Part shown: in pieces, positions 48,601-50,752 of the stretch
Position numbering within the stretch: position 1 is the stretch's first letter
Layout: every line of letters begins with the position of its first letter
Virus record (IMG/VR): IMGVR_UViG_2579778748_000002
Source of the DNA: a virus
Taxonomy: Duplodnaviria > Heunggongvirae > Uroviricota > Caudoviricetes
Length of the DNA stretch: 50,752 nucleotides
Reading direction: 5' to 3' (one strand)
Made by a program: the position numbers

Positions 48601-50752
48601 CGGAGGAAGAGATATCGTTGCTGCGGTTTTGAAGACGCATCGGGTTCTGCTGAACCGTGTTGATACATCCTTAGCACCGAATATCGAGAGGCCTGCAATC
48701 CCTGCCATGCAATAGCGTTTTGCTGTCGGCTGGCGAACTTTCGATAGTACGAGTATTGAATGATTTCCAGCCATAATAGATTTTACGTGCTAATTAGTAA
48801 ATAAACCACTCGTCAGCAGACTTCTTGGTATCTTTCAGAGTCTCCTGAACAAAAGTTTTAGCTGAATTTTTGCACGAGAGGATTTGAGCCTCCGTCCCAG
48901 CCCCATAACGGCTTTTTATCTAACGTAGGCGTTACAAGTATTACATTTGTATTTTCCAGCAATAGTTGCATGCCCCGTTACTTGACTCATTGAAGATAGC
49001 TTCTTCTCTGAACTTTCATAACATCTTGGGCAAAAAGGACCGTTTGGTTTGCCATTGATAGGTGAGGCCCTCCAGTATACGTTTTCCCTATATTCAAGCT
49101 CGTCCGATGCATCAAGCTTAGCTTGCAACTCTTCGATCTTCAGCTTTAGTTCATACATTTCTAGCTGTGTATCAGCCAGTTCTATTTTGGCTTCAGATAG
49201 CGCGCTATAAAGCTCACTAAACTTAAGCCTCATTTCTGCATCATTGTATGCGCCAGTGGCATTTTTTATATCTTTTGCTAAATCAAAGGCGGTTTTGAGT
49301 GCGGTCAAACCAGTGACAATGTCAGCCATAAATTCCTCTTGAGAAAATACAATGTGTAGATATCAGCTTATCATCTTGTCAATAAAATTTATGTGAGCAA
49401 AATCAATAATTTGTTATCATTATTTAAATATTGCACTTTTTTATATGTATAACAGGATGAAGATTTTTATCTGGAAATTAAATAATAATGGAGGGGGGTA
49501 TGGATGAATCTGATAGAGACAGATAACAAATGTGGATTAAAATTCCGTTGTTGTGAAGTATTTGATAAGCATGAGGGGGGGGGGAATAAATGATAATTAA
49601 ATATTAAAAATATGTATTAACAATCAATAAATTGTCTGAAAGCTAAATGCTAGTTTAGAAATAATAAGGTTTGTGGCATTGTTTTATTAGTCATTGCTTG
49701 TGTTTAAACTATTTAACAACCAATTGATTATACCTTAGCGCGAACATCTGCTTTTCGCTCATGAAGAACAACCATACTCAAATCTTCCATGTCGCAGGAT
49801 ATTTGAGTATGAATATGTTACCGTGGGATAAATGCAACGCTTAGGAGAAAATATCTGTTCGATTATAATACCATCAGCTAAAAACTTCATCACGAATAGA
49901 TAATAAATATTCGCCTTGTGTTATTGTAGCTCTCTTCAACTTAATGTGTTTAGAATGTTTTTTTATAGCTGAAACTATAAGTTTTTTATCATGCTCACTT
50001 GTCTTCTCACCTAGGATAACACTTTTAATGCATCCTTCAGGGAGTGATATGTTTATGCCAGTTTTATATTTTTTTGCCAATTTGTCTTCTTGTGAGAAGG
50101 ATAAAATATATATTAGCCGTTTTTCTTGTTCATAAGACCATTCTTGAGATTTAGTTGCCAATATTCCATTGTAAATTTCCAAAAGCAAATTTCTTCCCTC
50201 GTCAAATGCTTGTTCATAAAGATGTTTGAACTTTTCTTGATAATCATCATAAATTGCATCATGATTATAGTTCACCTGATCAGCTATTAATGTTAGTACT
50301 GCAGTATCAATAGTCGGAGGGCGATCTTTATATTTGACGTCAAAGATATAGATATCCTCTAGTTCTCTTATTTTGTCTTGATCGAATTCTATACATATAC
50401 CTGTTCTGTTGTTAGCATAATGAGCCCACATTGTAGGGTTTAACGCCGTATTCGTAAAGCATGATATCCTTGCAGAGTCCAGCAATTGCGGGACATTTGG
50501 TTCCAGTTCTCTCATTGAATCAATATATTCGTTATATTCATATTCAGAAGGTAGCCAGCCAGACTCTCCACACCATGTTTTTATTATCAAATCATATCTC
50601 TCAGTTTTTTCATTATAATCTGGGAAACCACTTATTATCTTACAAAAACCTTCAGCACTGTCATTCATCATGTTGAGATGATTAAGATATAGTTTGTTTT
50701 CCACTAGAGATTTAATTGAATACTCATTAATAGGACAATATTTAAACAGCAT

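Follow-up and report, generated by a model that had tools for sequence, protein, structure and literature searches.

A short Rip1-family gene and a DUF2971 gene as candidate single-gene anti-phage cassettes at the attR end of a lambda-like Escherichia coli prophage

The 50,752-nucleotide (nt) IMG/VR virus record IMGVR_UViG_2579778748_000002, which at its full length we call the window, ends in two open reading frames (ORFs) on the minus strand, encoding proteins of 137 and 292 amino acids (aa). We conclude that these are probably two unrelated, separately acquired single-gene anti-phage cassettes, lying in the b-region slot by attR of a lambda-like Escherichia coli prophage: one a member of the Rip1 family, the other a DUF2971 protein that is a predicted ADP-ribosyltransferase (ART). 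Both genes belong to kinds already described, and what we offer is annotation rather than a new system. Homology, fold, independence and genomic context were computed; from these we infer expression in the lysogen, triggers, targets and a defence phenotype. An initial annotation, made from the window's sequence alone, had reported the two ORFs and a 544-bp gap between them (49330-49873, by the ORF ends), and these coordinates are confirmed. It had also called the genes AT-rich; indeed, the GC content is 0.325 in the DUF2971 gene, 0.30 in the gap and 0.41 in the zinc-ribbon gene, a range of 30-41% compared with 0.49 over the whole window and 0.515 over its tail genes.

The 137-aa protein is encoded at 48916-49329 (minus strand) by an intact ORF with an ATG start and a strong ribosome-binding site, AAGAGGA, 6 nt ahead of it. 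The architecture first proposed for it, a coiled coil followed by a C-terminal CxxC-x25-CxxC zinc ribbon, was right: CPRC lies at residues 100-103 and CNTC at 129-132. In an AlphaFold2 (AF2) model with a predicted local distance difference test score (pLDDT) of 78.8, helices at residues 2-23 and 30-74 precede a beta-hairpin and a compact zinc ribbon of four cysteines (C100, C103, C129 and C132), the zinc-ribbon part being modelled at a pLDDT of about 87. The same four cysteines are invariant or almost so among 50 diverse relatives. The family is large: 2,356 representative clusters (at 50% identity) reach E <= 1e-3, of which 626 reach E <= 1e-10, and almost every member has 130-155 aa. Against homologues, the nonsynonymous substitution rate (dN) of the gene is 0.15-0.28 with a saturated synonymous rate (dS), indicating purifying selection. 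Searches of Pfam, NCBIfam and PADLOC returned no significant match to the protein. A weak Pfam match to Zn_ribbon_IS1595 (E = 0.0017) was below threshold, and we rejected that identity; a DksA/TraR identity was rejected too, zf-dskA_traR being absent at E <= 0.1 in Pfam and in scans of the 50 relatives. PADLOC matches of the relatives to LmuB and similar proteins were coiled-coil noise.

What the initial annotation had missed is membership of the Rip1 family. The 137-aa protein matches phrog_1244 over its full length (E = 1.3e-16), and so do the Rip1 proteins of phages HK446 and JBD30 (E = 2e-53 and 3e-61). A profile built from the 50 diverse members and run against all PDB sequences found Rip1 (9oox) at E = 2.2e-5 over residues 11-137; the 9oox chain is gp037 of Escherichia phage HK446, identical over residues 20-155, and gp30 of Pseudomonas phage JBD30 is a relative at 30% identity. 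When the family was aligned with Rip1 by hhalign, the probability rose from 95.4% against one Rip1-family sequence to 98.1% (E = 1e-13) against three and 99.1% (E = 7e-19) against 13, the last over 145 columns, collinear along the full length. Hidden Markov model (HMM) matches between the two families were reciprocal, at 39 and 27 bits, and the cysteine pairs of the two proteins align. As judged from these profile comparisons, then, the 137-aa protein and Rip1 are distant homologues, the former being a short member of the Rip1 family. As far as the published summaries describe it, Rip1 (ring interacting pore 1) acts as one protein encoded by a prophage (Patel et al., Nature 2026, summarised in PMC13434031). 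In those accounts, the C-terminal half of Rip1 attaches to the small-terminase ring, an 11-mer, or in Pseudomonas phages to the portal, after which its N-terminal amphipathic helices assemble into a 12-mer pore and the infected cell dies; it is described there as non-toxic without a trigger, and its relatives as widespread among proteobacterial prophages (PMC13434031, PMC12908700).

The second gene, at 49874-50752 (minus strand), is intact and has its ATG at the last base of the window. The DUF2971-type signature originally noted in its product, PTMWAHYANNRTGICIEFD at residues 106-124, is borne out by Pfam: DUF2971 (PF11185) matches at E = 1.1e-12 with 49.6 bits, against a gathering threshold of 22, over profile positions 1-89 of 89. 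The suggestion that this is a candidate defence gene also gained support, in that the PADLOC profile PDLC04990 of the candidate system PDC-S31 matches residues 1-288 over positions 8-257 of 259 (E = 9.5e-38). Four more PDC-S31 profiles match as well, and the protein falls in phrog_1762. Among 57 sequences down to 20% identity, residues C98, F99, M108-Y112, G118, Y141, P145, K201, W205, Y207, E208, E210 and R212 are invariant, and all are kept here, with the core pattern of an MWxHYA helix and K...W-x-Y-E-x-E-x-R. An AF2 model made from these sequences (pLDDT 88.6; predicted template-modelling score 0.81) was closest to the DNA ADP-ribosyltransferase DarT and showed an ART fold with large helical inserts. 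The fold of the 292-aa protein is thus, by prediction, that of a DarT-like ADP-ribosyltransferase. A published analysis likewise predicts DUF2971 proteins to be DarT/AbiGi-like ARTs with a conserved tyrosine (motif II) and ExE (motif III) (PMC12522546). A HMMER profile of the family found chance matches only among PDB sequences. The ratio dN/dS against homologues is 0.13-0.17, again indicating purifying selection.

The earlier statement that DUF2971 proteins have no assigned function is therefore out of date, given that prediction and the experimentally shown, single-gene, abortive-infection-type defence of Aristaios. Aristaios is a 316-aa DUF2971 protein with an ART fold, encoded on the Lactococcus plasmid pUCCL641, that interferes with phage transcription (PMC11381338, PMC13064643). 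Close homologues of the window protein (67-82% identical) stand alone, with no conserved partner, in three mobile elements: an Enterobacter integrative island, where Gabija is adjacent; a Salmonella integrative and conjugative element, where the neighbours are EcoRII/Dcm and an AAA ATPase; and a mobilisable element, where they are Dam, Dcm and an AAA ATPase (the ATPases are of the AAA_15/21 families). DNA homology to these loci begins about 300 bp ahead of the ATG, extends 23 bp beyond the stop codon and ends where lambda homology starts. A block so bounded implies a self-contained cassette without antitoxin or partner; within the window it spans 49851-50752 (minus strand), including the conserved 3' flank of about 23 bp, and the conserved upstream DNA lies outside. 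We also considered a DarTG-type arrangement and rejected it. There is no gene in the 544 bp downstream or the 705 bp upstream and no conserved neighbour in homologous loci; without DarG or any other partner, the DUF2971 gene is not a DarTG member. Upstream of the ATG, past the window's end, the sequence reads ATGAAGAAATAAATG (11174-11190 of L001, the identical E. coli DNA with RefSeq annotation, whose coordinates become those of the window on adding 39579). In some homologues its TAA is GAT (L072 8001-8013), which gives a four-residue N-terminal extension, MKKD-, and a protein of 296 aa, so that the start codon differs between lineages.

The whole window is a lambda-like E. coli prophage inserted at the lambda attB site. 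Bacterial flank (ybhC, 1-1284) is included at its left end, followed by the lambda att core GCTTTTTTATACTAA of attL (1331-1345, plus strand) and the adjoining int (1419-2489, minus strand). From attL, the order is int, early genes, lambda-type terminase, portal and tail genes, J, lom, tail fibres and then the two ORFs, which are transcribed against the late operon. We read the attR side from E. coli genomes identical to the window across the searched 2.2-kb end segment. An attR core matching GCTTTTTTATACTAA lies 705 bp past the DUF2971 ATG, with ybhB-bioA on its far side (E. coli A1_136); the 419 bp that lead up to the core match the lambda sib/attP arm (27319-27738) at 96% identity. The proposed placement in the b-region, after the tail fibres, is therefore correct. 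The expectation that further partner genes might lie beyond the window did not hold, because attR is reached within those 705 bp, where there are no annotated genes and just implausible short ORFs. Many complete E. coli chromosomes carry the 2.2-kb segment at 100% identity. Of 5,426 complete E. coli genomes, 46 have both genes, and since all copies are at least 99% identical, they represent a single prophage lineage, whose hosts include human clinical isolates.

Do the two genes form one functional module, as the initial annotation had suggested while allowing that they might be independent? Such a module could join a Rip1-like sensor or gate to an ART effector, or the genes could be co-selected, synergistic partners. 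They are direct neighbours in three of 26 Rip1-like lineages, far above the random-neighbour expectation: the window, a Kosakonia sacchari prophage (L133 7001-9358) and a metagenome contig (L180 2417-4173), in each case with a DUF2971 gene of PDC-S31 type. However, both order and orientation differ among the three, with the DUF2971 gene first in the window, a convergent arrangement in Kosakonia and the Rip1-like gene first on the contig; the gaps are long and unconserved (544, 1011 and 551 bp), and the three DUF2971 proteins share only about 25% identity. In the other 23 lineages, the flanks retrieved contain no DUF2971 gene. Conversely, no Rip1-like gene was found at other DUF2971 loci (63 genome, 9 close-homologue and 24 viral loci, which include some duplicates), even those of the 67-82% identical homologues. 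Moreover, Rip1 and Aristaios each act as single genes, and the co-occurrence in E. coli is that of one clonal prophage. Each gene also has its own conserved upstream DNA. For the Rip1-like gene this is a region of about 195 bp (49330-49525, minus strand) that aligns to the upstream DNA of homologues in Citrobacter and other prophages and, being conserved across genera, probably carries the gene's own promoter and regulatory region; between it and the DUF2971 unit is a spacer of about 30% GC (49526-49850, no strand assigned) that is not conserved with homologous loci of either gene. Separate upstream DNA and mostly solitary occurrence lead us to two single-gene cassettes rather than a module, which we consider unlikely, and the caution about independence proved well placed. 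An obligate pair we rejected, as close homologues of each gene were found alone. The three adjacencies fit co-localisation in a defence hotspot and may leave some room for cooperation. On the metagenome contig, toxin-antitoxin genes lie upstream of the pair.

Other readings concern the genes singly. The ART fold of the DUF2971 protein would suit an ADP-ribosylating effector of lytic growth, as with Alt, ModA and ModB of phage T4, or a toxin used by the lysogen in virulence or competition; about 18% of DUF2971 proteins are predicted to be secreted effectors, with pathogen roles discussed (PMC12522546), and this prophage also carries an inverse autotransporter, a virulence-type cargo. Yet the cassette, upstream DNA included, also resides in non-phage elements amid defence genes, which speaks against a lambda-specific lytic function. 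Moreover, its transcription at the end of the prophage runs counter to the late operon, the Pfam and AF2 results gave no sign of a secretion signal or delivery domain, the PADLOC defence-island candidate is matched at full length, and the sole tested member of the family is a defence protein. We think such an effector or toxin quite unlikely. The 137-aa protein might instead be a regulator that binds nucleic acid or RNA polymerase, like DksA/TraR, or might act in connection with DNA damage, forming no pore. DksA and TraR share its plan of a coiled coil and then a four-cysteine zinc ribbon, the sub-threshold IS1595 match points the same way, and its homologues repeatedly stand beside dinI, umuD, umuC or a gene for an SRAP protein. 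Against this, the DksA/TraR match is lacking and coiled-coil matches are compositional noise, whereas Rip1 and phrog_1244 alone gave a match that was significant, full-length and reciprocal. The neighbours, too, are variable cargo of the slot. At every look-up the homologues lay in tail-encoding prophage loci, mostly at the att-proximal end, and in related prophages the stretch from the tail fibres to the Rip1-like gene holds an intact dinI, frequently together with umuD, umuC or SRAP; here there is just a DinI-like pseudogene remnant (48794-48871, minus strand, by RefSeq annotation of the identical DNA), 44 bp from the Rip1-like stop codon. A role as regulator or in DNA damage thus seems improbable to us. 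Finally, one or both ORFs might be decaying, unexpressed remnants of horizontally acquired AT-rich DNA silenced in the lysogen, as their very low GC content, the lack of a detected consensus promoter or terminator and the neighbouring pseudogene might suggest. But both reading frames are intact, with identity of at least 99% across the 46 genomes, both bear clear marks of purifying selection, all family-invariant residues are kept and the upstream regions are conserved across genera, which makes decay very improbable.

Several observations weigh against two anti-phage cassettes of these families. Pairwise similarity of the 137-aa protein to Rip1 is insignificant (phmmer E = 0.45), and tblastn against 50,697 phage records found no match, so that the relationship is visible only with profiles. 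The protein lacks both the W-E-x-E-K-x-x-Y segment that Rip1 has between coiled coil and hairpin and the Rip1 C-terminal tail. Its N-terminal helix has a maximum hydrophobic moment of 0.46 (residues 7-24), compared with 0.42-0.45 in Rip1, and 22% of shuffled sequences reach that value; fold searches with the monomer model gave nothing informative. There is no consensus sigma-70 site on the minus strand upstream of the Rip1-like gene, and promoter and terminator scans of the region found sites no more frequent than in shuffled sequence. In the DUF2971 protein, Y112, Y141 and E208-Q-E210 are invariant and, by the published motif description (PMC12522546), putative catalytic residues. A tblastn search of 72,556 plasmids gave no Lactococcus match at E <= 1e-3; the likeness to Aristaios is that of a shared Pfam family and ART fold, by description (PMC11381338). 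The literature searched held no experimental report on PDC-S31, which is a candidate system only, and for both this DUF2971 subfamily and the short Rip1-like subfamily a defence phenotype is so far a prediction. To these must be added the three adjacencies already described.

With these reservations, two independent cassettes remain the explanation that we favour, and they could work as follows. Both genes would presumably be expressed from the lysogen and shield it from other phages. By analogy with Rip1, the C-terminal zinc-ribbon half of the 137-aa protein would dock on the small-terminase or portal ring of an infecting phage; the ring would template oligomerisation, the N-terminal helices would form a membrane pore, and the pore would kill the infected cell before progeny mature. 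The DUF2971 protein, having no linked antitoxin, would stay inactive until infection, perhaps by means of its helical inserts or its C-terminal domain. On infection it might then ADP-ribosylate a nucleic-acid or protein target, a modification that would halt the phage's transcription or replication, in the manner reported for Aristaios. A more speculative extension, to which we give only a small chance, is that the short Rip1-like proteins form a large, distinct branch of ring-templated pore formers that recognise another phage assembly, that their repeated adjacency to PDC-S31 ARTs reflects synergy, a late pore backing up an early nucleic-acid ART, and that the DUF2971 protein is an antitoxin-free, self-inhibited, DarT-like modifier of DNA or RNA.

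Comparison with known systems shows how far these likenesses go. Like Rip1, the 137-aa protein is a small single protein of a temperate phage, encoded on the strand opposite its neighbours and assigned to phrog_1244, with N-terminal helices, a beta-hairpin and the four-cysteine knuckle pair P-x-x-x-C-x-x-C-Y-E/Q ... C-x-x-C. It differs in its length of 137 aa, where Rip1 has 164 (identity is about 22-25%), and in its place at the att-proximal prophage end; the Rip1 gene lies next to N in HK446 and between the terminase genes in JBD30. In HK446, this slot is equivalent to that of sieB, on the strand opposite N (L080 2944-3438); the window has sieB itself at 8056-8637 (plus strand), beside N at 8654-9046 (minus strand). 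The window's DUF2971 gene resembles PDC-S31 in its full-length profile match, and PDC-S31 and Aristaios alike in encoding a DUF2971 protein with a predicted ART fold that stands alone on mobile elements. Aristaios, however, comes from a Gram-positive plasmid and has only the Pfam family in common, and many relatives, for example the protein of the Kosakonia pair, lack the helical insert that the window protein has at residues 150-198. DarT of DarTG shows no HMMER sequence similarity to the protein, and DarTG carries an adjacent DarG macrodomain antitoxin where the DUF2971 gene has no such neighbour or other partner. As AT-rich, oppositely oriented cargo in a variable lambdoid slot that would protect the lysogen, the two genes recall SieB, RexAB and the b-region morons; nevertheless, neither is related to SieB or Rex by sequence, and unlike those genes they occupy the extreme attR end, abutting the lambda sib/attP arm.

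These assignments give two hypothetical genes of a lambda-like prophage a concrete, testable annotation. They tie a large, unannotated family of zinc-ribbon proteins of about 137 aa, which has no Pfam family, to the newly described pore mechanism of Rip1. They also place a PDC-S31/DUF2971 gene in E. coli, a tractable host, which opens a route to the trigger and substrate of an antitoxin-free, predicted DarT-like ART. And they show the att-proximal end of lambdoid prophages to be a place where single-gene defences and SOS-type cargo are exchanged. A cargo slot of the latter type (dinI, umuD, umuC and a gene for an SRAP/YedK-like protein) is present in the enterobacterial prophages at loci L074-L078, L131 and L133, and the window retains the dinI fragment only.

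A few further features of the window were recorded. The intergenic spacer contains a tract of ten G residues (49575-49584), some 50 bp further upstream than the conserved block ahead of the Rip1-like gene. The tract is 9, 10 or 11 long in three otherwise identical E. coli copies of the intergenic region and is their sole difference; this is either slipped-strand (phase) variation or a homopolymer assembly error. An Rfam scan of the region gave nothing except a sub-threshold fragment of the small RNA IS009 at about 48560-48672 (L001 8981-9093; 41.6 bits against a gathering threshold of 117, E = 1.7e-7), outside both genes and flanked by a phrog_1443 gene and a tail-fibre-assembly fragment. Elsewhere, a 299-aa ORF (9405-10304, minus strand) occupies the rexAB position directly downstream of a cI-like repressor gene (10434-11141); it has no Pfam or PADLOC match, belongs only to phrog_4506, of unknown function, and is possibly an exclusion or defence gene expressed in the lysogen. 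The inverse autotransporter, of 1183 aa, is encoded between the replication and nin regions (13723-17274, plus strand) and combines an IAT_beta domain with Big_1/Invasin_D3 repeats, as in an intimin/invasin-like adhesin. Other cargo comprises a Blc-like lipocalin (19596-20120, minus strand) and a 2-thiouracil desulfurase/DUF1722 protein (20313-21272, plus strand).

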